Below, in pieces: positions 12,626 to 52,600 of a DNA stretch of 64,000 nucleotides. A program made the position numbers and the translations under genes. Each line of letters begins with the position of its first letter. Positions within the stretch are counted from its first letter, which is position 1. Source of the stretch: Heptranchias perlo (taxonomy: Eukaryota); contig NC_090340.1 in assembly GCF_035084215.1 (NCBI RefSeq), positions 5,084,001 to 5,148,000 of the forward strand, in the 5' to 3' direction. Below the pieces are notes generated by a model, which made no database searches, was not told the origin of the DNA, and saw nothing but the letters and a program-made list of their open reading frames with translations.

Positions 12626-12720
12626 CTAAAAGGCAAAATTATATCTTGTTATGTTGTTGGGACAGATGTCGCGGTTGGACGCTCCCGGCGAAGAACGATG
12701 CAAGCAGGCCCGGAAATCAT

Positions 12721-12964: not shown

Positions 12965-13129
12965 ATGGGTCCAGAGTCCATCCATTAAATTAATGGATGG
13001 AAATTGAGTTGCAGCCGCCCACAACTTTCCGGCCGCGCTCCATGCCAGCGCCGTCAGCAGCCAAAAGGCGGAATCAGTCCTATTAACACAAATACTAAAA
13101 AAATACCTGGGGTGGGGCGGGGGGTGGTG

Positions 13130-20444: not shown

Positions 20445-21345
20445 GAACATAAGAACATAAAACAGAAGAAATAGGAGCAGGTGTAGGCCATACGCCCTCG
20501 AGCCTACACCGCCATTCAATAAAATCAGAGCTGATCTTCGAACTCAACTCCACTTTCCCGCCTGATCCCCATATCCCTTAATTCCCATAGAGTCCAAAAA
20601 TCTATCGATCTCATTCTTGAATATACTCAACTACTGAGCATCCACAGCCTCCTGGGTTGGAGAATTCCAAATATGCACGACCTTCTGAGTGAAGAAATTC
20701 CTCCTCATTTCAGTCTGGGACTTGATGGTTTGACTTATAGGGAGAGGTTAGATGGACTGGGACTTTTTCCCCTGGAGAGTAGGAGGTTAAGGGGTGATCT
20801 TATAGAAGTCTATAAAATAATGAGGGGCATAGATCAGGTAGATAGTCAAATTTTTTTCCCAAAGGTAGTGGAGTCTATAACGAGGGGACATAGATTTAAG
20901 GTGAGAGGGGAGAGATAAAAAAGGGTCCAGAGGGGCAATTTTTTCACTTAAAGGGTGGTGAGTGTCTGGAACGAGCTGCCAGAGGCAGTAGTAGAGGCGG
21001 GTACAATTTTGTCTTTTAAAAAGCATTTGGACAGTTACATGGGTAAGATGGGTATAGAGGGATATGGGCCAAATGCAGTCAATTGGGACGAGCTTAGTGG
21101 TATAAACTGGGCGACATGAACATGTTGGGCCGAAGGGCCTGTTTCCATGTTGTAACTTCTATGATTCTATGATTCGAAATGGTCGACCCCTTACCCTGAG
21201 ACTGTGCCCCCTAGTTTTAGACTCTCCAGTCAGGGGAAATAGCGTCTCAGCATCTATCCTCTCAAGGCCTCTCAGAATCTTATCTTTCAATGAGATCACC
21301 TCTCATTGTTCTAAACACCAGAGAGTATAGGCTCATTCTACTCAA
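20445..21345. mobile_element. CR1 3' fragment (-) interrupted by another CR1 3' end (+, 20716-21175)
   Basis: aagaacataagaacata tail; LGLFPLESRRLRGDLIEVYKIMRG; ttctatgattctatg tail. Confidence 0.9.
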
Positions 21346-28039: not shown

Positions 28040-28400
28040 GTTCCTGACAGGAGTCACGAGTCCTGTTGAAGGTCCGGCATTTCGGATGAGGTGTCAAACC
28101 GAGGCCCCAACTGCCCGATCAGGTGGCCAAAAAAGATCCCAGGTACTATTGAGAAGAAGAGCAGGGGAGTTCTCCCCGGTTTCCTGGCAAATATTCATCC
28201 CAACCGACATCACTGACACAGATTATCTGATCTTTCATTTCATTGCTGTTCGTGGGATCTTGCTGTGCGGAAATAAGCTGTCCAATTCCCTACATCGGAA
28301 CAGTGACTACGCTTCAAGAGTTCTTCATTGGCTGTAAACCGCTTTGAGGCGGCCTGAGGTTGTGAAAGGAGCTATAAAAATGCCAGTCTTTGTTTTCTTT
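28040..28400 (+). mobile_element. Deu-domain SINE, 5'-truncated
   Basis: tttcggatgaggtgtcaaaccgaggcccc...gtgaaaggagctataaaaatgc. Confidence 0.8.
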
Positions 28401-28945
28401 CTCAACTGGGAACCAGCCACCTCACGTCCTGTGTATCAGCTGGGGCTACATCCTCACTACCACATCTGAATTAGCTGGTTGTATTTCATATTGATTCAGG
28501 CCTCACAGTGTAACTGCTGCTCCTTATCCTCATTCATATATAACAAATAGATCCATACAGATTCTGAAGGTAGTGGTATATCCGACAGATTTTTTTTTTT
28601 ACTCAAGAACAACACATTGAATACTACATGCAAGTTATAAGTCTATATGCACATAAGTAGAATACCCAACGGGGTGCTTGAGCTTACACCTCACCAGGCA
28701 GTCCGCAGTCTTGAGTCTCCACTTCTTCTAAAACTCACTGATATTTATACTTCTGATGGACAATTCCTAAGCAGGGTCAGGTGATTTCATTCGAACCTAT
28801 TGGGGTAGATCTTGACTTTGTGCGATATGAAAATAAATATTGGGAGAAAAGTAAAACGGGCTGCCCACTCGCTATCACTCGTTTCACTGTGTTGCGTGAT
28901 GTCAAGACCGACCCATTAACTGTAACACTCATGTGATATTTGGGG

Positions 28946-31035
28946 GCGAAGGGAGATTGAGACCATACAATGGCAACATGTTCCCGTAAAGGTCAAGGGT
29001 GGTTCCAAGAACTCCAGGCAACCTTGGATGTCAGGGGATATACGAGAATGGATTAGGAAAAAAAGGAGGGCTTTTGGCAGATACAAAAGGCTAAAGACGG
29101 AGGAAGCCCTAGAGGAGTACAAAAAGTGCAGGGGGATACTTAAAAAAGAAATTAGGAGATCAAGGAGGGGCCATGAAATAACACTGGCGAGCAAAATAAA
29201 GGAAAATCCGAAGATGTTTTATAAGTATATTAAGGGTAAGAGGATGACTAGGGAAAAAATAGGGCCCATTAGGGACAAAAATGGCAATCTGTGTGTGGAG
29301 CCGGCAGATGTAGGGGGGGTTCTAAATGAATTTTTTGCATCTGTTTTCACTATGGAGAAGGACGATCTAGACATAGAAATACGGCAGGGGGACTGTGATA
29401 TACTCGAACATCGAGCGGGAGGAGGTATTGGCGGTTTTAGCAGGCCTAAAAATGGATAAATACCCAGGCCCGGACGAAATGTATCCCAGGCTACTGTGTG
29501 AGGCAAAGGAGGAGATTGCGGGGGCTCTGACACATATATTCAGAACCTCTCTGGCCACAGGGGATGTGCCAGAGGACTGGAGAACCGCTAATGTAATACC
29601 ATTATTGAAGAAGGGGAGTAGGGAAAAACCGGGGAACAACAGGCCAGTGAGCCTAACATCAGTGGTAGGAAAATTATTGGAAAAAATTCTGAAGGACAAA
29701 ATTAGTCTCCACTTGGAGAAGCAAGGATTAATCAGGGATAGTCAACATGGCTTTGTCAAGGGAAGATCATGTCTGACTAATTTGATTGAATTTTTTGAGG
29801 GGGTGACTAGGCGTGTTGATGAGGGTAACGCAGTGGATGTGGTATACATGGATTTCAGTAAGGCCTTCGATAAAGTCCCCCACAGGAGACTGGTCAAGAA
29901 GGTACGAGCCCATGGAATCCAGGGTGCCTTGGCACTTTGGATACAAAACTGGCTTAGTGGCAGAAGGCAGAGGGTGATGGTCGAAGGTTCTTTTTGTGAC
30001 TGGAAGCCTGTGGCCAGTGGGGTACCACAGGGATCGGTGCTGGGTCCCTTGCTGTTTGTGGTCTACATTAATGACTTGGATATGAATGTGAAAGTTATGA
30101 TCAGTAAGTTCGCTGATGATACAAAGATTGGTAGGGTGGTAAATAGTGAGGAGGATAGCCTCAGTCTGCAGGACGATATAGATGGGTTGGTCAGATGGAC
30201 AGAACAGTGGCAAATGGAATTTAACCCGGAAAAGTGCGAGGTGATGCACTTTGGAGGGACTAACAAGGCAAGGGAATACACAATGAATGGGAGGACCCTA
30301 GGCAAGACAGAGGGTCAGAGGGATCTTGGTGTGCAAGTTCACAGATCCCTGAAGGCGGCGGAACAGGTAGATAAGGTGGTAAAGAAGGCATATGGGATAC
30401 TTGCCTTTATTAGCCGAGGCATAGAATATAAGAGCAAGGAGGTTATGATGGAGCTGTATAAAACACTGGTTAGGCCACAGCTGGAGTACTGTGTGCAGTT
30501 CTGGTCGCCACACTACAGGAAGGATGTGATCGCTTTGGAGAGGGTGCAGAGGAGATTCACCAGGATGTTACCAGGGCTGGAGCGCTTCAGCTATGAAGAG
30601 AGACTGGGAAGATTGGGTTTGTTTTCCTTGGAGCAGAGGAGGCTGAGGGGGGACATGATTGAGGTGTACAAAATTATGAGGGGCACAGATAGGATGGATA
30701 CTAAGGAGCTTTTTCCCTTCGTTGAGGGTTCTATAACAAGGGGACATAGATTCAAGGTAAAAGGCGGGAGGTTTAGAGGGGATTTGAGAAAGAACTTTTT
30801 CACCCAGAGGGTGGTTGGAGTCTGGAACTCACTGCCTGAAAGGGTTGTGGAGGCAGGAACCCTCACAACATTCAAGAAGCATTTGGATGAGCACTTGAAA
30901 TGCCATAGCATACAAGGCTACGGACCAAATGCTGGAATATGGGATTAGAGTCGACAGGGCTGATGGCCGGCGCGGACACGATGGGCCGAAGGGCCTCTAT
31001 CCGAGCTGTATGACTCTATGACTCTATGACTCTAT
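28946..31035 (+). mobile_element. Young 5'-truncated CR1 LINE with an open RT region (ORF 29395-30948, 517 aa)
   Basis: QHGFVKGRSCLTNL, YMDFSKAFDKVPH, GVPQGSVLGP, FADDTK; (GACTCTAT)n tail; one frameshift near 29410 separates it from upstream ORF2 sequence. Confidence 0.97.
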
Positions 31036-31282
31036 TACTAAACGACTCGGTGGCAATGTTGCGTCACATTAATTTCATATTGGGACGCGGAAGATATTTC
31101 AGCTGGAATGTAGATATCTTCATAAAAATCAGTTTCACATATGTTTACAGGAAAATAGCAACTTAAACCAAACATATTGGAGTTACTTCTAAATTTGGAC
31201 GATTGTGTCAAACGCGCGAGATCGGCTCGACCAACAGCGGAACACCTCTCCTGATTTTTCTTTCCATTTAAATACACGCGAT

Positions 31283-31661
31283 GGGTTTTTAACAGGTGGG
31301 AGGGGTGGTTAACGGGTGGGAGAAGTGCATAACGGATGTGATGGTGTTCAACGGGTTGGAGAGGTGTTTATCGAATGGGCGAGCTGTTTAAGCGGTGGTA
31401 GAGTTGTTTTAAGGGTGGGAACGAGGTTTAATGGGTAAGGGGTGTGTCTAAAGGGTGGTAGAGGTACATATCTGTTGGAATAGGTGTGTAATCGGTGTGA
31501 GAGGTATTTTACTTATAGGAGAGGCGTATAATGGGTGGAACAGATGTATAACGGGTGGGAGGGTGTTTAAAGGGTGCGGGAGGTGTTGACGGGGTGGGAA
31601 AGTATTTAAGGGGGAGCAGAGGTGTTTAACGGGAGGAAGAGGTGTGCAACGGTTGGAAGCA
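31283..31661 (+). repeat. 20-bp G-rich degenerate minisatellite, left part
   Basis: Consensus approximately TTTAACGGGTGGGAGAGGTG in tandem. Confidence 0.9.
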
Positions 31662-33777
31662 TAGTGATTATGTTACTGGACTAGTAATCCAGACGCCAGG
31701 ACTAATAATCCAGAGTCATGAGTTCAAATCAGGCCACGGCAGCTGGGGAATTTAAATTCAATTAATTAATTAAATAAAATCTGCAATTATAAAAATTACT
31801 ATCAATAATCGTGGCCATGAAACTACCGGATTGTCGTAAAAACCCATCTGGTTCACTAATGTCCTTTCGGGAAGGAAACCTGCCGTTCTTACTCGGTCTG
31901 GCGTATATGTGACTCCAGACCCACGGCAATGTGGTTGATTCTTAATTGCCCTCTGAAATGGCCTAACAAGCCACTCAGTTGTAAAATCTCGCTAGAAAAG
32001 GTCAGAATAAGAATAAAACCGGACGGACCATTGGGCACCAGACACGACAAAGGCAAACCAAGCCCAGTCGAACTTGCAAAGTCCTCCTCACGAACATGTG
32101 GGGACTTGTGCCAAAATTGGGATAGCTGTCCCACAGACTAGTCAAGCAACAGCCTGACATAGCCATACTCACAGAATCATACCTTTCAGCCAACGTCCCA
32201 GAATCTTCCATCACCTTCGCTGGATATGTCCTGTCCCACCAGCAGGACAGACCTACCAGAGGTGGCGATACAGTGATATACATTCAGGAGGCAGTGGCCC
32301 TGGGAGTCCTCAACATTGACTCTGGACCCCAGAAATATCATGGTATCAGGTCAAACATGGGCAAGGAAACCTCCTGCTGATTGCCACCTACCGTCCTCCC
32401 GCAGCTAATGAATCAGTCCTCCTCCATGTTGAGCACCACTTGGAGGAAGCACTGAGGGTAGCAATGGCACAGAATGTACTCTGGATGGGGGAGTTCAATG
32501 TCCATCATCAAGAGAGGCTAGGTAGCACCACTACTGACCGAGCTGGCTGAGTCCTGGAGAAATTAGATGCCAGACTGGGCCTGCAGCAGGTGGTGAGCGA
32601 ACCAACACGGGGGAATAAACCTACTTGACCTCGTCCTCACCTATCTACCTGTCCATGACATTATTGGTAGGAGTGACCACCACACAGTCCTCGTGGAGAT
32701 GAAGTCCCGTCTTCGCACTGAGGACACCATCCACCATGTTGTCTGGCACTATCACCATGCAAAATGGGATAGATTCAGAACAGATGTAGCAGCTCAAAGT
32801 GGGCATCTACGAGGCGCTGTGGACCATCAGCAGCAGCAGAAATGTATTCCAGCACAATCTGTAACCTCATGGCCCGGCATATTCCTCGCTGTACCATTAC
32901 CTACAAGCCAGGGGTTCAACCCTGGTTCAATGAGGAGTGTCGAGGAGCAAGCCAGGAGCAGCACCAGGCGTACCTAAAAATGAGGTGCCAACCTGATGAA
33001 GATACAACACAGGACTACATGCATGCTGAACAGTGGAAGCAACATGCTGTCGACAGAGCTGCGCAATTCCACAACCACGGATCAGATCAAAGCTATGCAG
33101 TATTGTCACATCCAGTCGTGAATGGTGGTGAACAATTAAACAACTAACGGGAGGAGAAGGTTCTGTAAACAACCCCATCCTCAATATTGGCGGAGTCCAG
33201 CACTTGAGTGCAAAAGACCAGGCTGAAGCGTTTGCAACCATCTTCAGCCAGAAGTGCCGAGTGGATGATCCAACTCGGTCTCCTGCCGATATCCCCACCA
33301 TCACAGAAGCCAGTCTTCAGCCAATTCGATTCACTCCACGTGATATCAAGAAACAGCTGAGTGCACTGGATACATAAAAGGTTGTGGACCCCGACAACAT
33401 CCCGGCTGTCGTGCTGAAGACTTGTGCTCCAGAACTAGCCTCGCCTCTAGCCAAACTGTTCCAATGCAGCTACAACACTGGTATCTAACCGACAATGTGG
33501 AAAATTGTCCAGGCATCTCCTGTCCACAAAAAGCAGGACAAATCCAATCCGGCAAATTACCGCCCCATCAATCAACTCTCAATCATCAGCAAAGTGATGG
33601 AAGGTGTCGCCGACAGTGCCATCAAGCGTCACTTACTCACCAATAACCCGCTCACCGATGTTCAGTTTGGGCTCAGCCAGGACCACTCGGCTCCAGACCT
33701 CATTACAGCCTTGGTCCAAACATGGACAAAAGAGCTGAATTCCAGAGGTGAGGTCCACATTCCATGAACGAATGAAA
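31662..33777 (+). mobile_element. tRNA-headed single-ORF CR1-group LINE copy with most of the RT deleted
   Basis: B-box GTTCAAATC at 31722-31730; APE motif NMWGLVPKLG*LSHRLVKQQPDIAILTES near 32095; RT start ...TWTKELNSRGEV joined directly to the family 3' end ccacattccatgaacgaatgaaaa; candidate TSD AAGCA at 31657-31661 and 33778-33782. Confidence 0.85.
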
Positions 33778-36700
33778 AAGCAGTATATAACGGATGCGGG
33801 ATGTGTTTAATGGGAGGAAGAGGCGTGAAAAGGTTGGAAGCAGTGTATTACGGATGGGAGAGGTGTTTTACGGATGAGTGACGTGATGAACGGGTGGGAG
33901 AGTTGTGTAAATGGTAGGAAAGGTATATACTGGATTGGTGAAGTATTTAACGTTTGAGAGAGGTGTGTACCGGGTGGGAAAGGTGCTTAACTGGTGGCAG
34001 AGGTGTTTAACCGGTGGTAGAAGTGTTTCACGGGAAGGAGAGAGAGAGAGGCTTGTAAAGAGTGGTAGAGATGTTTCTCAGGGGGGAGAGATGTATAAGA
34101 GATGGGAAAGATATTTAACGGGGAGGAGAGGTGTTTAACAGGTGAGAGGGTTGTTTGAAGGGTAGGAGTGATTTGTAGCGGGTGGGAGAGAAGGTTAACG
34201 GACGAGAGAGGCTTTTAACTGGTGGAAGAGACGTTTAACGGTTGGAAGAGGCGTGTAACGGATGACAGAGGCTTTTAACTTGTAGAGGAGGTGTTTATTG
34301 TGTGGGAGAAGTTGATAACGAATGGGTGAAGTGCTTAACTGGTATGAAAGGTGTGTAACGGTTGGGAGAGGTTTTTTATCGAGTGCCGGGTGTTTAATTC
34401 GTGCGCAAGTTATATGAGGGGGTGGAGAGGTGTTTAATGGGTGGAAGATGCGTGTCGCGAATAGGACAGGCTGTTTAACGGTGGGAGAAATGTTTAACGT
34501 GGCGGGGGTAGGTGTTAATGTGTGAGAGATGCTTTTAAGGGATAGAATATATGTTTAACGGTTAGAAGACTTGTGTACCGTGTGACAGAGGTGTATAACG
34601 GAAGCGAGGAATGTTTAACGGATGGGAGCGTTGTGTAACGGTTAGGAGAGCGGTTTAACGGGTGGGAGAGATGTTTAAGGGGTGGGAGAGATTTTTAAGC
34701 GGTGGGAGAGCTGTTTAACGGGAGGGATAGGATTTTGTAAGGGTGAGAGAGGTTGTTAACGGATGGGAGAGGTGTTTAACTGGTGGAAGAGGTTTGTAAC
34801 GGGTGGCAGAGGTATACAACGAATGCACGGGCTATTTAACGCATAGGAGAGCTGTTTAACGGATAGGACAGTTGTGTAACGGTTAGGAGAGCGGTTTAAC
34901 GCTTCATAGAGCTGTATAACGGGAGGGAGAGTTGTCTAACGCGTAGGTGAGGTTTATAAGCAGTGTGAGAGATGCTTAACGGATGGGAGAAATGTTTAAC
35001 GGATGGGGTCGATGTCTAATGAGTAGGAGAGGTATTTATGTGGTGGAGGAGGTGTGTAACGAATGTCTAATGTGTTAAACGGGTTGGAGAGGCTTTAATG
35101 GGTGGGGGTGTTTAGTGGGTGGGAGATGAGTGTAAGGGATAGGCGAGGCTACTTAACGGGTGGGATGAGTGTTCACCATAGTAGAGGTGTGTAACGGATG
35201 GAAGAAGTGGTTACCGAGTGCGGCCCGTTTTTTAAAGGTGTGGGGAAGTTATATAACGGGGAAGAGATGTGTTTAACCGATGGGCGTGGTGTTTAACGGT
35301 TGGGAGAGGTGTTTTAATGAGTGGGAGAGGGGTTTAACGGATAGGAGATGTGTGTATTGGCTGGTAAATATTTTTAACGAGTGCGGGGAGGTTTTTAAGT
35401 GGTGGGAAATTTAATTAAGGGGGAGGAGTTGAGTTAACGGGTGGGAGAGGTGCTTAGAGGGTTGGAGATATGTTTAACGGACAGGAGAGTGGTGTAATGA
35501 ACGGGAAAGGTGTTTAACAGCTGTGAGAGATTTTTAAAGGGAAGAGGTGTTTGTCGTGTGGGAGAGGTTTTTAACGGTTGGGAGAGATGTCAATCCGTTG
35601 GAAATGAGCAACGGGTGGGAGAGGTGTTTATGGGGTATGAGAATTGCGTAAGGGGTGGGAAATGTTTCTCACGGAGATGAGAGGTGATTAACGGGTGAGA
35701 GACGTGTTTAACGGGAGCGAGAGGTGTTTAATTGGTGGGAGAGGTGCCTAATTGGTGGGAGGGTTGTCTGTCGAATGGGAGAGGTGTTTATGCAGTGGAA
35801 AAGGTATGTAAGGGGGGGAGAGGTGTTTAACGGGGGGAGTGATGTTTTACGGGTGGGAGAAGTGTGTAACAGGTGGGAGAAGTGGTCAACGAGTGCGGGG
35901 GTGGGGTGTTTAAGGGGTGGGAAAGTTATTAATGAGGGAGGAATGGTGTTTGACGGGCGGGGGAGGAGTTTAATGGGTGGGAGAGGTATTTAGCCGGTGG
36001 GAGATATGCTTAACGGAAGAGAGAGACTTTTAACGGGTGGAAGACGCGTTTAACGGGTGGGAGAGTTGTGTAAAGGTTGGCAGAAGTGTGTAACGCATGG
36101 AAGCGACGTTTGATGCATGATAAAAGCTTTGAACGGGTGAAAGAGGTGTTTATTGGGTACGAGATATGTTTAACTGGTGGAAGAGGTGTGTAACGGGTGG
36201 GAGAGCTGCTCAAAAGGTGGGAGAGGTGTTTAACGGGTGGAAGAGGCGTGTAAAGCGTGGGAGTGGTGCTCAATGGGTGGGAAAGGTATTTAACCGGTGG
36301 AAGAGGAGTGTAACGGGTGGGAGTGGTCTTCAAAGGGTGGGAAAGATGTGTAACGGGTTGGAGAGGTGTTTAACGGGTGAGAGAGGTTTGCAACTGATGG
36401 AAGAGTTGCCTAACGCATGAGAGAAGCTTTTAACGGGTGGAAGAGGTGTTATGATGTGGGTGAGATGTTTAATGGGTGGGCGAGGTGTTTAGCATGTGCA
36501 GGAGGAGTTTAAGGGTTGGAAAATATATTTAACGGAAAGGAGAGGCGCGTAAGATGGGGCGGGGGGGAGTTGTTTATCGGGTCGGAGAGGTTTTTAAGCG
36601 GTCGATGAGATGTGTAATGGGCGAGAGAGGTGTTTAAAGGGTGAGAGGGGTTTCTAACGTGTGGGAGAGCTCTTTCGCTTGTGGGAGCGGGTTTTAACCG

Positions 36701-36778
36701 GTGTTATACGTACTTAAGGGTTTGTAGAGGTGTTTAAAGGGTGGGAGAGGTTTTTAACGGGTGGGAGAGGTGTTTAAT
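33778..36778 (+). repeat. 20-bp G-rich degenerate minisatellite, main array (~150 units)
   Basis: Continuous ~20-nt periodicity of tttaacgggtgggagaggtg variants. Confidence 0.95.
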
Positions 36779-37128
36779 ACATGGGCCAGCTGATATCACA
36801 CATTTTACACTATCGTCTCAAGACAAAATTATCCTCGATGTCTCCAAACTAGGCCACAATTCTTTACACGATCTCTTACCTTAACCTGACAACTCATCAT
36901 ATTTGTTTCTATTTGTACTGCAGAATCGCAACGTCCTAATCTAAACCACGTGTTAACCTCTATCACACAGAATACATTCTCACAATATACAGGTATTAAT
37001 ATTGACTTCTGTACTATTAATCTTTTCTCATTATTTGTCATCAGATGTTCTAAGCTTTATGTCGAATCACGCCCAAAGTATGCCTGTGGTGTCTACACTT
37101 CCCCTTTAATGTAGCCCTCTGTGCTAAC

Positions 37129-37745
37129 TGTAGATTATAATAGGGATTTGGTCATCGTGGGGGGAGTTGCTAGGAGATAAAATATATTGCACTTCCAGTA
37201 GGTACAAGATGGAAAGGGGTCAGTTAGTCTGCAGCTGTAGTTTTGAGTAGAAACAGTTAACTCTTGCCTGTTAGAAGGAGGACGAGCGAAGTATAGTGAA
37301 AGTTAGAGGGATGGAGAAGATTTGACGTATGAGAAATGAGTCGGGTTGATGGGCAGGAGAGTAAATGCTAATCCAGCGAAAGAAGGTAGAAATCCGAATC
37401 TTGAGCGAAATGAGAACTGGAAAAGTCTAGTCTAGACACAGAAAGGGAAACATCAGTCCTGGGATCTAATGAATCATAATAATGAATGCATTCCTATAGT
37501 AACTACTATACTAAATATAAATTTGAGTGGCACCTGAGAGAATGATATCCCTATTGCAGCTATGGATGTCGAAGTTCATAGTGGAGCGGGGTTTCCATGT
37601 GCAGTCGGAGCCCAGATAGGAATCCCTTTAGTGAGTAGATGGTCCAGACTTTCAAATGGGTGTTACTCAACTACTAAGAAAAAGCTAACTGCTAATGAGT
37701 CCACTCTCAGTGTCTGAATCTTGCTTGGAGTTGTGCATTCAAACA
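37129..37745. mobile_element. Solo LTR (617 bp) inserted in the ERV 3' LTR
   Basis: TGTAG...AAACA termini, perfect 5-bp TSD CTAAC (37124-37128 and 37746-37750); absent from the matching site of the 5' LTR. Confidence 0.85.
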
Positions 37746-37813
37746 CTAACTACCCCATGATATCGTTTACCCATTCCAAGCTGTTAACCTATTACACTAT
37801 ATACTATCCTACA

Positions 37814-37824
37814 TTCCCCTCCTT
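37814..37824 (-). promoter_or_regulatory. Polypurine tract AAGGAGGGGAA
   Basis: Purine-only run directly abutting TGTAG at the start of the 3' LTR. Confidence 0.8.
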
Positions 37825-38235
37825 GGAATTGAGGGAAATGCCCTTTTCCAGGATTGCACACCCAACTATCTCTCGCACTGTTTCCTTCACAATCTACCTT
37901 AATTTCACTTGCTTCATGTTCTGTCTCACCACTCATAATTATATTTAATACTACTCACGTAATACCTTGGGCTACCACGAGCAACTCAGACATAATCCGT
38001 ATCCATGGATGTTTTCCAGCATTATACATTATTTCTCATCATTCATATATCAGACACAATCGAAAGACTGGATTTCAAAGATCCCCCAGTAATCTTTTAC
38101 TGTTATCCATAATGCGGATAATTTTAATTTAAGTTTTGGAGATCACCCTGAATTTGGGATTTTCAATTCTACATCCTTTTTTACTTTGAACTTCAATTAG
38201 CCTGATGAAAAACAGTGCTTTGACCCTATGCTGGA

Positions 38236-40050
38236 TAGAGTCATAGAATCGTTACAGTGTACAAGGAGGCCATTCGGCCCATCAAGGCCGTGCCAGCAAA
38301 TTGCAAGAGTAATCCAGTTAGTGCCATTCGACTGCTCTTTCCCCGTAGCCCTGCATTTTTTTTTCCTATCAAGTATTTATTCAATTCCTTTGAAAGCCAC
38401 GATTAAATCTTCCTCTTCCACGCTTTCAGACAGCGCATTCCAGATCATAACTACTCGCTGCGTAAATAAGTTTTTCGTCACGTCGCCTTTGGTTAACTTG
38501 CCAATCACCTTAAATCTGTCTCCACTAGTTCTCAACCCTTTCACCAATGGGAATAGTTTCTCTTTATTTACTTTATTTAAACCTTGATTTTGTCTTATTT
38601 ATTCTAAATGATGATTTTGAACACTTCTACCAAATTTCCTTTCAACCTTCTCTGCTCTAAGGAGAACAACCTCGGCTTCTCCAGTCAATCAACGTAACTG
38701 AAGTTCCTCATCCCTGGAACCATTCTACTAAATCTTTTCTGCAACCTCTCTAAGGCCGTCGCATCCTTCATAAATGTGGTGCCCACAATTGGACAAAATA
38801 CTCCAGTTGTGGCCGAACCAGTGTTTTATAAAGGGTCAACACCATTTCCTTGTTTCTGTACTCGAAGCCTCTATTTATAAAGCCCAGGAACCCGTATGCT
38901 TTTTAAACCACTTTCTCACCTGTCCTGCAACCTTCAAAGATTTGTGCACATACACCCCAGCTCTCTCTGTTCCTGCACCATTTCTAGAATTGTACCATTT
39001 CGTTTGTATTGCTTCTCCTAAATCTTCCTGCCAAAATTTATCACTTCGAAAATCCCTGGATTCAATTTCATCTGCCATGTGGTGTCCGCCCATTCCACCA
39101 GCATGTCTATGTCCCCTTGAAGTCAACTACTATCCTCCTCACTGTTTACTACACTTCCGAGTTTTATGTCATCGGCAAGTTTTGAAATTGTGACCTAAAA
39201 CAGTGGTCCTAGTACCGACCCATGGGGAACACCACTGTACACCTTCCTCCAGTGCGAAAAACAACCGTCCATCGCTACTCTGTTTCATGTCACTTAGCCA
39301 ATTTCGTATCCATGCTGCCACCTCCCCTCTTATTCCATCGGCGTCAATTTTGCTGACAAGCATATTAAGTGACACTTTATTAAACGCCTTCTGAAAGTCC
39401 ATATACACAGCACCAACTGTATTGCCCTCATCAACCCTCTCTGGTACCTCATCAAAAACCTCAATGAAGTTAGTTAAACATGAATTGCCTTTAACAAATC
39501 CGTGCTGGCTTTCCTTTATTAATCCATTCATTTCCAAGTGACTATTAACTTTGTCCCTGATTATCGTTTCTAAAAGCTTCGCCACCACCGATGATAAACT
39601 GACTTGCCGATAATTATCATGTTTATCCTTAAACACTTTTTTGAACAAAGATGTAACATTGGAAATTCTTCAGTCTTCTGGCGCCACCCCTGTATCTAAG
39701 GAGGATTGGAAGAATATGGCCAGCATCTCTGCAATTTCCACCCTTACTTCCCTCATGAACTCAGGATGCATCCCATCCAGACCGGATGACTTATTTACAT
39801 TAAACACAGCCAGCCTATCTAGTACGTCCTCTTTATCAATTTTTACCCCATCCAGTCTCTCAACTACCTCCTACTTTACTGTGGCTTTTGCAGCATCTTC
39901 TTCCTTGGTATGGACGGACGAAAAGTATTCATTGAGTACCTCAGCCATGCCCTCTGCCTCTATTCATGCATCTCCTTTTTGGTCCCTAACGGCCCCACCC
40001 CTTCTCTTAACACCCATTTACTATTTATATGCCTATAGAAGACTTTTTGA
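38236..40050 (-). mobile_element. CR1 LINE fragment inserted in the ERV env
   Basis: ESQHGFVKGNSCLTN, YMDFQKAF; CR1-type tail at 38236. Confidence 0.92.
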
Positions 40051-40420
40051 TTATTGGTTGTATGATTAATTTATGTAAAGAAGGTTGGCTTTTCTATGGA
40101 TCGTGTGTCAGAGCCTTGAGTAAAAGGTTGAAATTAGTAATGATACGTATATGTACACATTCTTCTGAGTCACAATAATCATTTCATGTAGCGATGTTGC
40201 AACGTGACTGAGCATGTCTGGAACCCGTTCTTCAGTACAACTTTATCATACATTCTGCATACTGTTTGCTTCATGCACAACAATTCAATCCTACAATTTC
40301 AGCGGTAGGCCTAGATCTTGTGAACAAGATATCAGGTACGAGGTATTCCTGCCCTTACATTCTATCTATCAAAAGATCAGGTGTTTGTAGATTTCAAGTA
40401 GTGGTCAGGCCATAAAATAC

Positions 40421-41752
40421 AAACCCTTGGCCGTTCTGCCCTTGGAAACTACCGCCCCATCTCAAATCTTCCTTTCCCCTCCAAATCCTTGAATATGTTG
40501 TTGCCTCCAAAATACAGGCCCATCTTTTCTACAACTCCATGTTTCAATCCCTCCAATTAGGTTTCCACAACTGCCAAAGTACTGAAACGGCTCTTCTCAA
40601 AGTCACGAATGACATCCTATGTGACTGTAACGATGGGAAACTATCCCACCTCATCCTTCTCGGCCTCTTTGCAGCCTTTGTCATATTTGACCACACCATC
40701 CTCCACCAATGTCTCTCCTCTATCGTCCAGTTGGGTGGGACTGCACTTGCCTGGTGCATTCTTACCTAACCAGTCATAACCTGAGAATCACCTGCAATGG
40801 CTTTTCTTCCTTCCCCCACACCGTTACCTCTAGAGTCCCCCATGGAGCTATACATCGTACCCTACTATTTCTTATTTACATTCTGCCCCTCGGCAACATC
40901 ATCAGAAAATACAATGTCAGGTTCCACATGTACGCTGGCGACACACAGCTCTATCTCACCAGCACCTCTCTGGACCCCTCCGGTGCCACTGATTTGTCAA
41001 CCTGCTATTCTGATATCCAGCAATGGATGAGCTAAAAACTTTCTTCAACTAAATATTGGGAAGACCAAAGCCATTGTGTTCATTCCCCGTCACTAAATCC
41101 ATTCCCTCGTAACAACTCCATCCAGCTCCCTAGCCAGGATTTGAAGCTTAACAAGACTGTTTGCATCCTTGGCGTCCAATTTGACTCTGAGATGAGCTTC
41201 CAAGGACATATCCGCTTCTTCACCAAAACCGTGTACTTCCACCTCGGTAACATCGCCTGTCTCTGTCCTTGCCTCAGCTCATGTACTGCTGAAACATTCA
41301 TCCATGCCTTTGTCACCTCTAGACTTGACTATTCCAATGTTCGCTTGGCCGGCCTCCCATAATCTTAAGCTTATCCAAAACTCTGATGCATGTTTCCTAT
41401 TCCCGTTCACAAATCACCCCCTGTGCTCACTGACTTACATTGGCTCCAGGTCCAGCTCCTCCAGTTCTTGACTCTTGCGCATCCCCGATTTCAATCGCTC
41501 CACCACCGCCGGCTGTGCCTAGCAGTTGCTAGGTTCTAAACTCTGGAATTCCTCCTCTCCTCCAAACCCACTCTCCTCCTTTAAGGCACTCCTTTTAACC
41601 TGCACCTTTGACTAAGCTTTTGTTCACCTATCCTTATACCTTCTTATTTGGCTTGGTGTCAAATTTTGTTCGATAACGCTTCTGTGAAGCACCTTGGAAC
41701 GTTTTGCTACGTTAGAGGCGTTATATAAATGCAAGTTGCTGTTGTTGTTTTC
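40421..41752 (+). mobile_element. L2 LINE 3' fragment inserted in the ERV env
   Basis: STETALLKVTNDIL, FHMYAGDTQLY, FIHAFVTSRLDYSN; tatataaatgcaagttgctgttgttg tail. Confidence 0.92.
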
Positions 41753-44229
41753 ATTATTGAAACTGATAGAGGCAATGACACAACTATTTCAAAGAGAAAG
41801 CTATCAATTAAATATTCCTAACTACACATTCCTGACTTTCACCAGATTGTGCATTGATTGAAGACTGATACCTTTAACTGGATCGTGCCCGGGTGATTCA
41901 TATTTCTCGTAGGTCCACTAACGCGTCTTTTCCATGACCGACAGTTGGCGCTGGAATTGTCCTGCTTCCACTTTATAGACTCAGTAACTCCTTGTGTCCA
42001 ATTAAGTTACATGTCCCCATAATATTATCATCTCCTCTCGGTCGTGAGCCCAGGATGAACCTTACTATCCAATAAGCTATTAATTTTGAAACACAGATTA
42101 GAAGTTCTCTCACAGTGTGGCGAATACATAATTAATACTTTTACTTGAATTGAAGATTTATTTTGTGAACGTCTTTAAAATTATCATCAATATATAGCAT
42201 GTTGTCTATAGTCAGTATCCCCTGGATCACCAGCTCTTTGATCCCATCTATTTTAGATGTATACACTTTATTTTTCTTTATTCTATTGAATCTCGCCTGG
42301 CTTTCCTAGATTCGTTTTATATCGTATCTATTGCACATAGCTTTCCCGAGTTCTTACACCCTAGAGAACACTTCCGATTATGCCAGTTGTGTCTTGCGTT
42401 TCATAATGATTCGCAGAGCTCACACGTGGTTTAACAATGCGTTTTAAACATGCAAGTGGTACGACTTTAATATTTTTAATAATTCGTGCCGTGGATCCTA
42501 AGAGACAACAGCCTCAGCAAGAGTCACATGATTTTATATCTTATTGTGACAAATTATTTCGTACCGAAATATCTAAATCCGGAAACAATTCACAGGAATT
42601 CCCGAATGGTTGGAGGACACTACCTCACTAGGCGACTTATTTTTCAGAGGAGGGTAACTTGCATTCTCTAGACGCAGAAGAATTAAACATAATGAAACAT
42701 TGAAGTCTTTCCCTCCTCTACATTCTTCTGCCAGTATGTGGAAAACATTAATTTACTTTCTTTGTTTCTTATATTGCATCCAAGAGAACTACCCTTACTC
42801 ATTTAGGGTTTATAGTATGAACGAGGTGCTAATTATGTTATTTAGATTCAGGAATGCCCAGTCGCTAAGGAACATCTTATAGGGTGCACAAACCCGTGTG
42901 TGGGTTTGAGTCTTTTCTACCAGATATTTTCAGTTGTAGCATAGAGACTCTGGAATCCAACCGGCTCCTTAACATTTCCACCCATCAAAATATATGACTT
43001 TGAATCAAACTTCTAGGGATATTTCAAAATAACATTTCCCGGGTCCTAACGCCTGAACAGTTCCATTACTGCTCGTATCTCTTCACTAACTTAATCTTTC
43101 TTATTTTAGTTCAACAATTTCAACTGACTATCTTGCTTAATACTCTGCAATTCAGCTTAACCATTTAGTAAATTAAAATGTTGTAAGTAGAGCTGAAGAT
43201 TGATCTTGAATTCTTCGTGACTGAATAATAGAAGTAAAGGTGAATCACTGCTCCTGCCTATAAAACTGTCTGTAAAAAGGAGGGCGGAACCAACTACAGC
43301 TACTAGTAACGGCACAGAAGTGTTTTTTCCCAATTTCTAACATTATTACATTAAACGACAGCACCACAGGAACAATGTATAACTAGACAAGTAGAGGGGT
43401 TCCAAAATCGAAGAATTTCCATCCTGAGGAAATACAAGTTTGTTGAAACAAACAGAAATCATTAGTTGATTGATTTCATTATCACCATCAGTACCCTTCA
43501 TATATCTGTAAACCTGTGCAGCACAATCCTGTAGGGGAAGAACTAATTTTATTTGTTCATCTCAATTAAAATGTAAAGTAGTGTGTCGTTGCCTTTTTTC
43601 ATGCACACCAAATATAAAACACTAAGCAAGATCACCTCGCTGTCTGAATCGCCCATCCCAAGAAAACCAGCATTGAATAATTTCATAATTTGATTAGACA
43701 CTCGGTCTGTAACCTTTTGTTAATTCGCACCAATTACTCCAATTCAGACCGAAAATGAAGGAAGTCAATAACTCAAAAACAGAAGGCACATATTGAATTA
43801 AAAAACATAATTAAAATGTAAGGCAGCACATGGTTGCAAACACACAAATGTTACAAATCATTTTCTTTCTTCGGCACACCTTGTAGATGACCTATAAATT
43901 CACTGAATATAACAGAGTAAATGTTAGCTCTTGTCGGCAACATCAGAGATTTGATAATCTGTGTAACAATCTTAATATTAACTAAATTAAGGCCTACCAA
44001 GGATTAACACTTCAGACGGAAAAGGGGCAGAGTCAGCCAGAACAAGGAAGCTCCACAAAGCCGTGGTTACACACACATTTAAAGAGGCAAAACAAGAGAA
44101 ATACTGCAGCCTGTAACGGTAGAAAAGAGACATTTCCCTCTTCGCTTTTTTCTCTCTTAGTCTATTTATGCTTTATTTCACTCATTTCAACTTTCAATAT
44201 GTGATGTTTGTTACCTAATCCAGTTTCGT

Positions 44230-44900
44230 TGCAATGTAAGAAAGGGGCTACTCAGGCATATATTAACCTTTCTGTTTCTGGATAAGATCACTGTGGGCTT
44301 TTAATTTCTCTCCCTTTTGCCTAATTCTGTTGCTACTTTTGGTATAACTGACCGAAGTTCTTCAAATAATTGCATCACAGCCTTTGTCTCTGGTGCAAGC
44401 TTTAACTCCTCAACTCTCCTCCTATAAAACTTCTTTTAATTGATCACAACGTTTTGAACACTGTTCCAGTTCCTCATTTCTCCGGCTTTTTTCATTAGAA
44501 CTTTCCGTTTGTTGTACTAAGTGAAATAATCTGAGCAAATCATCATTTTTATCTTGTGCTTTTTCATCTTTTCTCTTAACGTTCCACATCCCTTCTTGAA
44601 GTTTTTATTACTATCTGGTATTGCTTTTGCAACAGCAGATAATCCCTGTACTACTGCTGTTTTAGTCAACTACTTCAGGTTACTCAAGAAACCCATTTCG
44701 AGTACTTGCTCATAGAGTAGATTTTCTCGAAAAACTCTCCGACTTTCAGGCGATCTCCGTCGTGTCTTGCAAGATATTTATCTCCTAATTTCTGAATTAC
44801 TTCGTCCTCCTGTTTCCTTCCAAATGTTATCCCGCATTTCCTCGAGCATGGGTAGGGTCAAAGCGGAGATGAAAATCGCGGACTCAACGGTGAAATTATC
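44230..44900 (-). pseudogene. Decayed coiled-coil, gag-like N-terminal ORF of the ERV
   Basis: Follows the PBS; frameshifted or stop-broken translation such as MGFLSNLK*LTKTAVVQGLSAVAK, EKSRRNEELEQCSKRCDQLKEVL, RRVEELKLAPETKAVMQLFEELRSVI; no capsid or zinc-knuckle motif seen. Confidence 0.45.
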
Positions 44901-44910
44901 ATTGCTTTAG

Positions 44911-44928
44911 GTTCTGCTGCGATTGCCA
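44911..44928 (-). promoter_or_regulatory. Decayed primer-binding site (TGGCAATCGCAGCAGAAC)
   Basis: TGG immediately after the terminal CA of the 5' LTR; tRNA identity cannot be assigned (weak resemblance to tRNA-Ser 3' ends). Confidence 0.5.
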
Positions 44929-46078
44929 TGTTCGATTTTGTATCATATCAGGCCTGGTACTCCATGTCCTGCTCCTTATCCTTATCCTTCATTTAATGAA
45001 CAGTTTAAAACCCATGAGACAGTGGTAGTCTTGAGACTGTACTTGTTTTAAAACTCACTGATATTTACACCTCTGATGGATAATTCCTAAGCAACGTCAT
45101 GTGACGTGCTTAGAACGTATTAACTCCAAGACTACTCTGATTCGTGTGTGCCAAATGCTACGACACCAATATGTGGCAATATTGCACTACATCTATTTCA
45201 TACTCACTGAACGTGAAAGATATTTCAGCTAGAATGAAATATTAGATTCAAAATTTATCCCAGGAAAAGAGAGGTTGAGTGAAATGGACCTTTATTCTCT
45301 GGAGCTTAGAAGAATGAGAGGGGATCTCATTGAAACGTATAAAACTCTTAGAGGGCTTGACAGGGTAGATGCTGAGAGGCTGATTCTCCTGGCTGGAGAA
45401 TCTAGAACTGGAGAGCATAATCTCAGGATAAGGGGTCGGCCATTTAAGATTGAGATGAGGAGGAATTTCTTCACTCAGATGGTGGTGAATATCTGGAATT
45501 GTCTACCCCAGAAGGGTGTAGCTGTTTAGTCGTTCAGCACATTCAAAGCTGAGATCGTTAGATTGTTGGACTCTAATGGAATCAAGGTATATGGGGATCA
45601 GGCGAGAAAGTGGAGTTGAGGTCAGCCATGATCTTATTGAATGGCGGGGCATGCTCGAGGAGCCGTTTGGCCTACTCCTGTTCCTATTTCTTATGCTGTT
45701 GCGGTCTTATGATATTAAAATCTTAAACCAGATATGTTGTCTCCAAATTAGCCGAAACCGTCTTAAATTGCATTAAACGTTCGGCTTGCTTAGCTTTGTC
45801 CTGCGGAATCCTAATGAGCTAATCTAAACCATGTGCTAGCCTCTATCACACAGACTACATTCTCATAATACAAATATATTAATACTGACTTTCGTATTGT
45901 TAAGTTATTTTACTCATTATTTCTCACCACATGAAATAATCTTTCTACCGAATCACGGCCAGTGTATATCTATGGTTTCTACACTTTCCACTTTTCTGTA
46001 GCCCTGTATCCTAACTAATCCCTGATGCAATTTAGCTCTGTCAAGCTGTTAACCTATGATGTTATACACTATCCTACA
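44929..46078 (-). repeat. ERV 5' LTR (~700 bp net, CR1 fragment inserted at ~45260-45710)
   Basis: Starts TGTAGGATAG, ends ...AATCGAACA; block 45821-45903 aligns by hand to 36938-37020 with 14 mismatches in 83 nt. Confidence 0.8.
45260..45710 (+). mobile_element. CR1 3' fragment inserted in the ERV 5' LTR
   Basis: LYSLELRRMRGDLIETYK...RNFFTQ. Confidence 0.9.
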
Positions 46079-47379
46079 CAGGTGAAAGTATCTGAGTTGG
46101 TGCATGTGAATGAAGAAGCGAGTGATGCAGGAGTGAGTTCGATGGGGTTGGGGAAAAAGAACTTAAAGCATGAGGGCAATGGAAGAACTCAGGTATGTTG
46201 GACTCCGAGTTTATCTGCCTTTTAATTGGGTGGAAGTTTGTGGCAATGTGGTGCTTGATAAGGGCAGCAAGGTGAGAAGCAGTAAGGTGGCGTTCGCAAT
46301 ATCCAAGTGAGCTCGTCATCACCCACAGGAAAAGCAGAGTGACTCTATATTGAATCGGTGGACTTTTGCACTGGTGAATTGCCCCCTCCAGTGGCTTAGG
46401 TCTTGGGGGAATTGAACACTATTTTCTGGGATAACAATATTGCATCAATTAGGGGAAAGCTGGTAATTCAGAAGTGTTCATGGGAGAGTTAAAGTAAGCG
46501 ATATGGGGGCATCGGTCTGTTAAGGGGCGGGAATGGGTTTTAGGATGGTGCAGGCAAGTAATTGCTGCTATGGGAGATGGGTAGCTAGTACCCGCTTAAC
46601 CAGAGTACATTGCGAAGGATTAGTTGCTGTTGGGTTGAATTTCTGAGATTTTCCGTGAATTTGTCATCCACTAACTTCAGCAGAAGAGTCATGGAATCTT
46701 GCAAAACGGCATAAACATTGTTTCGACTGTTCATCTGTGGTTTCTGTGTTTCTGCCATTGAAGTTACCGTGAAGTCTGAGAACCCTGAAACAATTCACTC
46801 TTGAAACTTTTAGACAGTGAAGATTTTGCATGCTCCCAGGGTGCCCAGGGACAAAAGGGAGAGTAGCTGGTGATTTACCTTGCCTGCCCTGGACAGGTCA
46901 TTGAACTCATTGTGTCAGTGGACTTCAGTTCTTATGGTGAGACTGTTGGCACTCAGTGCTACTACTCTCTAGGTGGTGCTAGTGACATTTCTGGCGGCTT
47001 TCCTGCCATGGACATCAAGCAGTCTGTGATACCTCATTCCAATTTTGCCAGATTTCGTGAAATTCGTGAGAAATGGGGAGGTAAATCTCTTTCCCTTTTC
47101 CAGCGCTTCAGGTGGCAGCTAGTCCAATGCAGCTATCAGTTGTGGTTCAAACCCATCAGTTTTCTTCTGCAGATTGGGCCCACGAGATACTCATCTCTGC
47201 CCTCGGCAGCAGGGCTAGGATATGAGCTCATCCTACGGAGAGCTGGGTAAAGGGGCGTCCACGCCATTGCTTATCTGCTCAAGTACTCTGTGAATCACTC
47301 AGTGCAGACCCCTCTAACTGATCCTCTAAACAACGCCAGTATTGATGTCAGGTCGAGTGATTTTGGATCTTGAAATGAA

Positions 47380-48250
47380 CTGTTCTCCTCTTCCTCTGTT
47401 GCGATAGGGCCGTGACTTCAACTGGACCTGGAAAGAGAGGCGAGTGACAAGGTTTCACAGTTAGTGACAATGGTTAGCAGTTATTTTCATGGGTTAGCAG
47501 AAACCGATGAGCAGGAGCTCAAGGCAACACCAGTGTGAATGGGGGAGAATGTTCAACGAGCACCGAAAAGGAAGGTAAGATGGTCAAACAAAGATAGAAC
47601 GTATCCTCCAGCCTTACCAATTGCGACCGTTCTGACCAACGCTCTGCCGACCATAGCGATGGCGATCTGTTTCATTGGTGACACCAATTGCAATGATGGT
47701 AGCCCTCCTCCTGTCCTCTGATATTTATGCCAAATTGTCCTGCTAGAAAAGAGCGATTGCCTTAATATGTGGCCTCTTGAAAAGTTGTGAAAATGTGTGG
47801 GTCGAGGTAGAATCATGCGTATGATGCGTGGACGAGGCTGCAAGTATGGGGGATTGAGAGGAATAATTGTAAGGAGAGTGGCAGGTGCAGAGAATGTTCG
47901 AAGCAGCAGAAGGTGGTTCAGTGAAATGCGCTGCTGTGATTGAAGGAGAGTGGTGGGAAACGAGAAGAGAAGGCTCGTGAGTGCTGGGCTCCAAGTGTTT
48001 CAGAACTACGCAGAGTAAGCGGGATGTGACTAGGAGTCTAACCTTATCACCTCTGGTCAAATCATTGAATCGTTTCCCACATTGCTGCCAGGACCTGGGC
48101 TATATGCACCATTCATTCAACTGCTCAGCCACTTCTGTGTATTGTTGCTTTGACACCTTTCTCAAATCGGCAAGAAACAGGAGCTCGCCCTCCTGCTGAC
48201 CACCTCCACAAGAGCTCCAGCACCGCCCGAGATCATTGGGGCCATTGCAT
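47380..48250 (-). pseudogene. PIF/Harbinger transposon Myb/SANT-like ORF remnant (spliced)
   Basis: AVLELLVEVV...YTEVAEQLNEWCI*PRSWQQCGKRFNDLTRGDK then GT donor at 48042; next exon QRTGGGLPSLQLVSPMKQIAIAMVG after TTTTCTAG. Confidence 0.7.
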
Positions 48251-49694: not shown

Positions 49695-52600
49695 AATCAT
49701 AGAATCATAGAAAGGTTACAGCACAGAAGGATCCAATTGGCCCATCGAGTCCGCGCCGGCTCTTTGCAAGGCCAATCTAGCTAGTCCCACTCCCCCACCC
49801 TATTCCCGTAGAACTACACTTTTTTTCAGTTCAATGACGTATTCAGTTCCCTTTTGAAGGCTATGATTGAATTTGCCTCCACCACCCCCTCGGGCAGTGC
49901 ATTCCAGATCCTAACCACTCGCTGTATACAAAAGTTTTTCCTCATATCACCTTTGGTTCTTTTGCCAAACACCTTAAACCTATGTCCTCTGGTTCTTCAC
50001 CATTTCGCTAATGGGAACAGTTTCTCTATATCTACTCTGTCTAGACACTTCATGATTTTGAATACCTCTAGCAAATCTCCTCGCAACCGTCTCCGTTCCA
50101 AGGAGAAAAAGCGCAGCTTCTCTAATCTATCCACGTAACAAAAGACCCTCATCCCTGGAATGATTCTCGTAAATCTCTTCTGCGCGCTCTCTAAGTCATT
50201 TACATCTTTCCTAAAGTGCCTTACCCAGAACTGCACGCAATACTCCAGTTGTGGCCGAACCAGTGTTTTATAAAGGTTCATCATGACTTCCATACTTCTG
50301 TATTCTATGCCTCTATTTATAAAGCCCAGGATCCCGTATGCTTTTATAATCGATTGCTCAACCTGCCGTCCCACCCTCAACGACTTGTGCACATACAGCC
50401 CCAGATCTCACTCTTCTTGTACCGATTTTAGAGTTGTGCCCTTTAGTTTATATTGCCTCTCCCCGTTCTTCGCACCGAAATGTATCATTTAGCATTTTTC
50501 TGTGTTCAATTTCATCTACCACGTGTCTGCCCATGGCAGCAGCCTGCCTATATCCTCTTGAAGTCTATCACTGTCCTCCTCACTGTTTACTGCACTTCCA
50601 AATTTTGTGTCATCTGCAAATTTTGAAATTGTGCCCTGTACACCCAAGTCCAGTCATTAATATATATCAAGAAAAACAGTCATCCTAGCACCAACCCCTG
50701 GGCAACACCACCGAGCATCTCCCTCCAACCGAAAAACTACAGTTCACCACTGCTCTCTGTTTCCTGTCACTTAACCAATTGTGTATCCATGTTGCTACTG
50801 CACCCTTTATTCCCTAGGCCTTAATCGTGACGATAAGCCTACCATACAGCACTTTATCAAATGCCTTTTGAAAGTCCATATACACCACATCAACTGCATT
50901 GCCTTCATCTGCCCTCTCTGTTACCTCATCAAAAAACTCTATCAGGATAGTTGAACACGATTTGTCTTTAACAATTCCGTGCTGGCTTTCCCTAATCAAT
51001 CCACACTCGTCCAAGTGACTGTGAATTCTTTCCCGGATTATTGTTCCTAAAAGTTTACCTACAACTGAGGTTAATCTGACTGGCCTATAGTTGCTAGGTT
51101 TATCCTGACACCCTTTTGTGAACAAGGGTGTAACATTTGCATTCTCCACTCCTCTGGCACCAACTCATATCTACGGATGTTTATAAGATTATGGCCAGTA
51201 CCCCTGCAATTTCCACCCTTACTTCCCTCAGCAACCTAGGGTGCATCCCATCCGGACCGGGCGAATTATCTACTTTAAGTACAGCTAGCCCTTCAAGTAC
51301 CTCTTCTTTATCAATTTTTAGCCCATCCAGTATCCTAACTCTATCTTCCTTTACTGAGATTCTGGCAGCATCTTCTTCCTTGGTAAAGAAAGATGCAAAA
51401 TACTCATTTAGTGCTTCAGCCATCCCCTATACCTCCATGAGTCGATCTCCTTTAGGGCCCCTAATCGGCCACGCCCCTCCTCTTGCTGCCCCTTTACTGG
51501 TTAAATGCCTGTAGAAGACGTTTGGATTCCCCTTTATATTGGCCATAGTCTATTCTCATTCTCTCTCTTTGCCAAACTTATTTCCTTTTTCACTTCTTGT
51601 TTGAACTTTGTTATATTCTGCCTTGTTCTCACTTGTCTTATCAACCTGACGTCTCTCATACGCCCCTTTTTTCCGTTTCATCTTACTCACTATGTATTTT
51701 GTCATCCAGGGAGCTCAGGTTTTATTTGCCCTACCTTTCTGACTCGTGGGAATGTGCCTAGACTGTACCCGGACCATCTCCCCTTAAAATGCAGCCCACT
51801 ATTCAATTACAATTTTGTCTGCCAATCTTTGATTCTGATTTACCCGGGCCAGAACTGTTCTCATCCCATTGAACCTATCCCTCCTCCAATTGAGTATTTT
51901 TGCTTTAGAGTGGCCAATGTCCTTTTTCCATAGCTATTCTAAACCTAATGATAATATTATCGCTAATCCCTAAATGTTCCCTCATTGACACTCGTTCCAC
52001 TTGGCCTGCCTCATTCCGTTGAACCAAGTCCAGCAATGCCTCCTTCGTCTTGGGCCCGAAAAAGTACTGGTCAAGAAAGTTATCCTCAACACAATTCAAA
52101 AATTCTTCCCCCTCTTTGCTCCTTATATTATTATTGTTATCGCAGTCTATATTAGGATAGTTGAAGTCCCCAGTTATCACTACTCTATAGCTTTTGCACC
52201 TCTCTGTAATTTGCCTGCCAATTTGCTCCTCTATATCCTTCCAACTAGTTGGTGGCCTATAGAATACACCCTGTAGTATAATGGTACCTTTTTTTATTCT
52301 TTAACTCTAAAAAAATAGATTTTTTCCTTGACCCCTCCAGGACATCCCCTCTCTCCAGTACTCCAATATTCTCCTTAATCAATACTGCGACCCCGTCCTT
52401 TCTTTCCTTCCCTTTATTTCCTGAGTACCTTGTATCCAGGAATAGTTAGTAACCAATCCTCCCCTTTTTTGAGCCAGGTCTCCGTTATCGCCATTGCATC
52501 GTGTTCCCATGTGGCTATTTGCACCTGCTGCTCACTAACCTTGTTTATCAAGCTTCACGCGTTTACGCACATGCACTGCAAACCAGTCTTACAATTTCTT

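Follow-up and report, generated by a model that had tools for sequence, protein, structure and literature searches.

An old LTR retroelement insertion with paired, diverged LTRs and no detectable pol beneath nested insertions in Heptranchias perlo

Described pol-less and class III elements

Non-autonomous elements with long terminal repeats (LTRs), such as the MaLR and LARD types, keep their LTRs and priming sites while the enzymes are missing, and they are defined by many copies that share the pol-less layout. The locus considered here has the same general composition, with LTRs and putative priming sites present and enzymes missing. It lies in a window of 64,000 nucleotides from Heptranchias perlo (NCBI RefSeq GCF_035084215.1, contig NC_090340.1, positions 5,084,001 to 5,148,000 of the forward strand), where it occupies positions 28480..46078 on the minus strand, and on balance we lean towards reading it as an old class III-like provirus, internally deleted and now inert, in which the two LTRs have diverged and neither pol nor env is detectable. 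Among the closest described systems are an amphibian and a fish element. XtERV-S, a class III endogenous retrovirus (ERV) of Xenopus, has 705-bp LTRs with TGT...ACA ends, and the available text of its description reports 19 internally deleted copies with 5-bp target-site duplications (TSDs), which usually keep the primer binding site (PBS), leader, 5' gag and polypurine tract (PPT) (PMC8278194). In zebrafish, BHIKHARI (Bik-1) is a gag-only endogenous lokiretrovirus that has a single 617-amino-acid Gag and whose reference copies all lack pol, according to the accessible part of the preprint (bioRxiv 2024.03.25.586437). Lokiretroviruses are not listed for cartilaginous fish in the available text of PMC7947760.

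Fish ERV screens start from Pol, as far as the accessible parts of PMC4422223 and PMC6001957 describe them, and pol-less elements like this one would therefore be missed. No description of this LTR family was found in the literature searched, with Repbase, Dfam and papers' supplements outside the search. The result is an annotation-level finding, as no gene can be assigned and nothing points to a function, and the locus is an ordinary sort of genomic fossil that is likely dead.

LTR pair, termini and flanks

The 64 kb contain only two copies of the sequence TGTAGGATAG, each on the minus strand, and their starts at 46078 and 37813 are those of the two LTRs. In a self-comparison of the window, four colinear direct-repeat blocks join 28480-37813 to 44929-46078. 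The 5' LTR (44929..46078, minus strand, 704 bp net) starts with TGTAGGATAG, ends with ACA at 44929 and is interrupted by a CR1-type 3' end. The 3' LTR (28480..37813, minus strand, approximately 724 bp net) consists of the pieces 37813-37751, 37128-36838, 31181-31036, 28954-28918, 28801-28681 and 28545-28480, and its ACA ends at 28480. Both LTRs have TGT...ACA termini and net lengths of approximately 700-725 bp after removal of the insertions, the inner end of the 5' LTR being uncertain by 10 nt (an alternative TGT lies 10 nt further in). Eight later insertions, summing to 12,220 bp, are removed in this reconstruction. A preliminary description, made from the sequence alone, had proposed an old LTR-element integration without pol under about 12 kb of nested insertions, with LTRs that share their start and a terminal ACA, and all of this is borne out.

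When the LTRs are aligned as eight colinear pieces, one by one, the 5' LTR (704 net bases) is covered over 691 bases at a pooled identity of 511/691 (74%), so that the two LTRs align end to end by pieces, as the preliminary description required. All pieces except 36838-36911 (5.0, against a shuffle maximum of 5.5) score above all 200 shuffles, i.e. seven of the eight. The best block, first put at ~83% identity, reaches a closely similar 82.1% over 95 nt, a value well above that of the pooled pieces. The Kimura two-parameter (K2P) distance between the LTRs is 0.267 +/- 0.028 over the four best blocks and 0.322 over all pieces. Transitions are rarer than transversions among the LTR differences (81 vs 99), with a ratio of about 1:1 in the related internal copy; such a low transition share is unusual for a methylated vertebrate repeat and may be an alignment effect.

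On the inner side of the 5' LTR lies a putative PBS (44911..44928, minus strand) with TGG immediately after the ACA of the LTR, and on the inner side of the 3' LTR an abutting PPT of 11 purines (37814..37824, minus strand). The PBS may resemble the end of a vertebrate arginine or serine tRNA; its pattern has 36 matches in viral contigs and one in a doubtful tRNA call, in a search set without host tRNAs. The flanks CTGGT (28475..28479) and CAGGT (46079..46083) are the left and right TSD candidates and match at four of five positions, as had been noted before, with a chance of 1.7% for at least four matches with fixed ends. With LTRs that pair end to end, TG...CA termini and a PPT, the element is a genuine LTR retroelement insertion. 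Furthermore, TATAAA at 28749 lies within the best-conserved LTR block and ATTAAA at 44997 lies 68 nt ahead of the 5' LTR end, positions that would imply a long U3 and a short R-U5.

The LTRs differ from each other by 0.27-0.32, roughly threefold the distance to the closest related internal copy (0.10). Such an excess might arise if, in place of a single integration, the LTRs stemmed from separate insertions of one family or from two that recombined. The abundance of the LTR block in the genome and the 4/5 TSD point the same way. However, the PBS-like site and the PPT each lie inward of their LTR, where they belong, a single TSD mismatch is to be expected between copies that have diverged so far, and a flank match of this quality arises by chance in only 1.7% of cases; an origin from two insertions is considered unlikely.

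Compared by anatomy only, the locus is like the deleted XtERV-S copies in its TGT...ACA ends, its LTR of ~700 bp, its 5-bp TSD candidate and the PBS-like site right after the LTR. It differs in its LTR divergence of 0.27-0.32, whereas the XtERV-S LTRs are identical and the oldest deleted copy is dated to ~25 million years (My) in the available account of that element. With the snakehead retrovirus (SnRV) clade and lineage I of CmiERV, which are class III-related elements of fish, it shares a probably short R-U5 and an ACA shortly before the PBS (SnRV), as far as the accessible descriptions extend. In contrast, it has no similarity to the Gag, Pol, Env or 3' ORF (open reading frame) of SnRV and its PBS is different, while the LTR divergences of CmiERV, given as 0.024-0.033 in the available text, are approximately 10-fold lower (PMC4422223; PMC12193657). 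The cis signals (TGT...ACA and a 5-bp TSD candidate) resemble those of class III ERVs, a likeness that is suggestive and not exclusive. By analogy, the element would work like a defective class III provirus and is a candidate member of that class, no reverse transcriptase (RT) being present.

Internal region and related copies

The net internal region measures 3,939 bp, as the ~3.9 kb of the preliminary description, or 3,269 bp if a possible solo LTR at 43182-43846 is real. At the gag position, an A-rich decayed frame (44230..44900, minus strand) contains five stops in 223 codons, compared with 17 and 20 in the other frames, and is without a homologue. A gag start had been proposed earlier, and one at 44900-44230 is weakly supported by the position of the frame after the primer site; homology contributes nothing, as the comparison with SnRV and foamy Gag (the two groups compared) gave no match, Pfam returned only Synaptobrevin at E 0.023 and a single-sequence structure model is uninformative at a predicted local distance difference test score (pLDDT) of 37. 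Beyond this first frame, the stop-codon test finds no stretch of the internal region more open than chance.

For the detection of more decayed coding sequence, profiles were made from retrovirus genomes and Gypsy-like contigs, and each internal piece was scored against shuffles with a frameshift-tolerant aligner. No signal of pol, i.e. protease, RT, RNase H or integrase, was found in any internal piece, with profiles at 11-21 bits and thus at shuffle level. This applies to the main internal region (41753..44229, minus strand), which shows neither pol nor env signal, and to the signal-free fragments between two long interspersed nuclear elements (LINEs; 40053..40409, minus strand) and ahead of the PPT (37825..38231, minus strand). 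Foamy Gag, Pol, Env and Bel profiles from 16 foamy genomes are at noise level, and the broad and Gypsy-like RT, RNase H and integrase profiles are at shuffle level, which gives no indication of an autonomous Gypsy/Ty3 element. Gamma-type Gag, Pol and transmembrane (TM) profiles stay in the shuffle range, as do the SnRV proteins, for which a single test out of 18, at 20.2 against a shuffle maximum of 20.1, is taken as noise; the foamy, Gypsy-like, SnRV and gamma scores all lie at 11-22 bits. The power control consisted of six pol stretches with 24-29% identity to the foamy query, decayed and scored, which yielded 36-130 bits in 48/48 trials at 13% substitution with 1-2% indels and at least 30 bits in 18/24 trials at 20% decay (66/72 overall). 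Because decayed control pol scored well, a long pol should have been detected, while short remnants could escape. The absence of pol, including the protease, RT and integrase that the preliminary description had failed to find, holds. Decayed RT and integrase motifs proposed by eye were rejected by the profile tests.

The preliminary description had placed an env beside the gag start, and a provirus of this kind, with an env too divergent and decayed for detection, would account for the ~3 kb between the first ORF and the PPT. The scattered hydrophobic stretches and two CX5-8CC patterns of the internal region could be seen in the same light. However, five Env profiles (foamy, gamma-type TM, beta, lenti and SnRV) are at shuffle level. 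The gamma-type TM profile, made from 20 sequences, gives 12-17 bits against a shuffle maximum of 18-26 and so no sign of a gamma-type Env, and the beta and lenti Env and Gag profiles, run with hmmsearch only, are blank. There is no open-frame signal, no CX6CC and no convincing immunosuppressive motif in the internal region, its single furin-like site lies in a stop-rich stretch, and Pfam and PDB provide no meaningful match. For a lokiretrovirus-type Env, related to the PF00523 fusion glycoprotein, Pfam, the only test of this family, gave no match. A foamy-like Env seen by eye was likewise rejected by the profile tests. The absence of env is less firm than that of pol, as the power control covered pol and not Env, but nothing supports an env and this explanation is quite improbable.

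Broader searches agree with these results. Pfam searches with 18 + 10 internal, solo-LTR and plus-strand frames gave weak, unrelated matches only (best E 0.005), and a PDB sequence search with six readings found nothing better than E 1.3. No match was obtained by phmmer for one 1,060-residue frame (of three) against 1.84 billion representatives, by word-seeded protein searches, which were limited to longer proteins, or by Rfam.

Related copies were sought among contigs from four DNA runs of one sample, aligned to 41760-46250 only and at a likeness of at least 80%; the window itself may derive from these runs, which are not independent of it, and contig depth does not equal copy number. Among the sequencing runs listed as containing the stretch, none is of RNA. 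Contigs cover every bin of this interval. Against a depth of 8-10 for the locus's own contigs (run X1), the summed contig depth is ~1,000 on 45810-45959, ~300 on 45960-46109, 100-120 on 43260-43559 and 11-74 in the rest of the internal bins, and part of the LTR is plainly repeated elsewhere in the genome. For three of the 15 contig joints listed, the short side would stop at the LTR start (46078-46079), in contigs from other loci. At least three of the listed joints, with sides of 20-27 letters, lie at 44291-44292, shortly ahead of the end of the first frame, and hint weakly at a breakpoint. Related contigs track the internal region in order at 88-92% identity, with a pooled distance of 0.10, and the 33 differences to the related copy are distributed 11/14/8 over the codon positions, without a third-position excess. 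As this distance is about a third of that between the LTRs, the locus was probably duplicated later to give the ~90%-identical copy. Insertions that arose independently at the same age would be ~74% alike and so lie below the 80% floor of this search.

These data bear on whether the element belongs to a non-autonomous LTR lineage that spread without pol and whose long internal region is non-coding apart from a gag-like ORF, like zebrafish BHIKHARI. A single open frame right after the PBS with none elsewhere, the coverage of every bin of 41760-46250 and the related contigs that follow the internal region in order are all consistent with such a lineage. Bik-1 provides the precedent, being an LTR element without pol that carries one ORF at its 5' end and, in the available text, is young with an intact Gag (bioRxiv 2024.03.25.586437). 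Here, in contrast, the frame is broken and its ~223 codons are much shorter than Gags of 530-617 amino acids, and the closest contigs, at ~0.10 compared with 0.27-0.32 for the LTR pair, suggest a later locus duplication and not independent insertions. Membership in such a lineage is a tentative second possibility. The more far-reaching proposal of a helper-spread, pol-less lineage with a novel ORF, a cartilaginous-fish counterpart of BHIKHARI or MaLR and among the oldest structurally complete two-LTR fish insertions, is doubtful. A deleted provirus is preferred for two reasons: the first frame covers under half the length of a Gag, and the sole near copy looks duplicated.

Several points weigh against the deleted, class III-like provirus. 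TG...CA ends and 5-bp TSDs are also found in other LTR groups, the TSD is imperfect, and neither the protein searches nor the SnRV comparison provides protein homology that links the element to class III or to another family. The openness of the first frame falls from P = 0.004 as picked to 0.09 after scan correction (3.18-kb piece), and its signal is modest because, of the 11 further segments tested, one, an LTR piece, likewise came to P = 0.03. The power control represents one profile and Gypsy-like or ERV-like pol only, with copia and BEL pol covered through Pfam only. The contig joints have short sides of 20-37 letters, of which those under 30 are unreliable. Finally, ~2.6-3.3 kb of the internal sequence is unexplained.

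In the favoured account of a deleted provirus, RNA from the 5' LTR would have been copied into DNA, with a host tRNA at the PBS and the PPT as primers, and integrase would have inserted the product with a 5-bp duplication, steps that belong to general retroelement biology. Most of gag and all of pol may have been lost either in a packaged genome that relied on helper virus enzymes or by later deletion, followed by neutral decay, at least eight insertions and then probably one much later duplication of the locus. The insertion may have hit an older, decayed transposon, perhaps Harbinger-like, as suggested by a weak Myb/SANT match in the right flank (48050-48160, minus strand; E 0.012) together with raised contig depth there.

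Nested insertions, age and neighbouring repeats

Each LTR serves as an empty-site control for the other, since each is without the other's insertions, and the 5' LTR has kept the empty sites for the solo LTR, the piece resembling a miniature inverted-repeat transposable element (MITE), the CR1 and the satellite block. Among the nested pieces, the preliminary description missed the 617-bp solo LTR and the ~116-bp element in the 3' LTR, the inverted repeats of the satellite and the possible second solo LTR. The nested case that stands out most clearly (37129..37745) is a solo LTR from another family, unrelated to that of the element, recognized by its TGT...ACA ends, by CTAAC on both sides and by a single CTAAC at 46011-46015 in the 5' LTR; a relationship of this 617-bp LTR to the host LTR was rejected, its similarity being within shuffles. 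A second possible solo LTR (43182..43846, 665 bp, TGT...ACA, AATGT on both sides) within the internal region is uncertain: two patterns of TGT...ACA with a 5-bp duplication were seen compared with 1.5 by chance, so that it lies within chance by count, while contig depth is raised at 43260-43559, which is part of it. A further candidate at 41958-42594 was rejected as within chance.

The remaining insertions are mostly LINEs, whose CR1 and L2 labels we assume. A 5'-truncated CR1-type LINE (28955..31035, plus strand) with an 8-bp tandem tail matches Pfam RVT_1 at E 2.9e-34, and its RT frame (29395-30948, plus strand) is uninterrupted over 517 codons, which marks it as a young insertion within a very old LTR. 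A CR1-type fragment (38232..40052, minus strand) gives RVT_1 at E 3.1e-10 and is 74% identical to 49699-51528; a presumably L2-like fragment (40410..41752, plus strand) is 73% identical to 55405-56476 and has no Pfam LINE match; and the CR1-type 3' end in the 5' LTR (45272..45717, plus strand), found by self-comparison, has very high contig depth. The satellite block (31182..36837, 5.66 kb) is bounded by ~70-bp inverted repeats at both ends, with a score of 58.5 against a shuffle maximum of 36.5, and is split by a LINE at ~31645-33754 with weak Pfam RT matches only. Its 20-bp minisatellite extends over ~3.3 kb between the inverted repeats, resembling a non-autonomous DNA transposon with a tandem array. 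The ~116-bp MITE-like insertion (28802..28917), which is not in the 5' LTR, has imperfect inverted ends with a borderline score of 27.5 against a shuffle maximum of 28.0. A piece of ~135 bp with a T run (28546..28680) is present in the 3' LTR only and represents either an insertion or a deletion from the 5' LTR. The nested insertions allow several waves of transposons to be placed in relative order.

The element is old, but the alignment of the LTRs for a divergence date, as first suggested, yields the K2P distances and no firm date. Calculated as K/2u, the age is 61-73 My with a rate of 2.2e-9 per year and 134-161 My with 1e-9; the rate assumed for elephant shark in the available text of PMC4422223, 2.2e-10, would put it at 607-732 My, which is implausible. 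The measured rate of 7e-10 for the epaulette shark cannot be applied directly because it is per generation (PMC10587355, accessible part). The repeats would suit a cartilaginous fish. If the host is as slow as sharks, the LTR pair, at 0.27-0.32, would be ~10x more diverged than the dated elephant-shark ERVs.

Elsewhere in the window, ARAGORN calls a tRNA-Glu(CTC) at 62138-62210 (plus strand); a short way downstream lies a repeat that also occurs at 7150-7430, 11116-11435 and 28080-28406, and the tRNA call is likely the head of a tRNA-derived short interspersed nuclear element. The region 12718-12967 forms a 250-bp imperfect, MITE-like palindrome with 78% self-complementarity, and an exact 38-bp repeat is shared by the window start (1-38) and 21138-21175.

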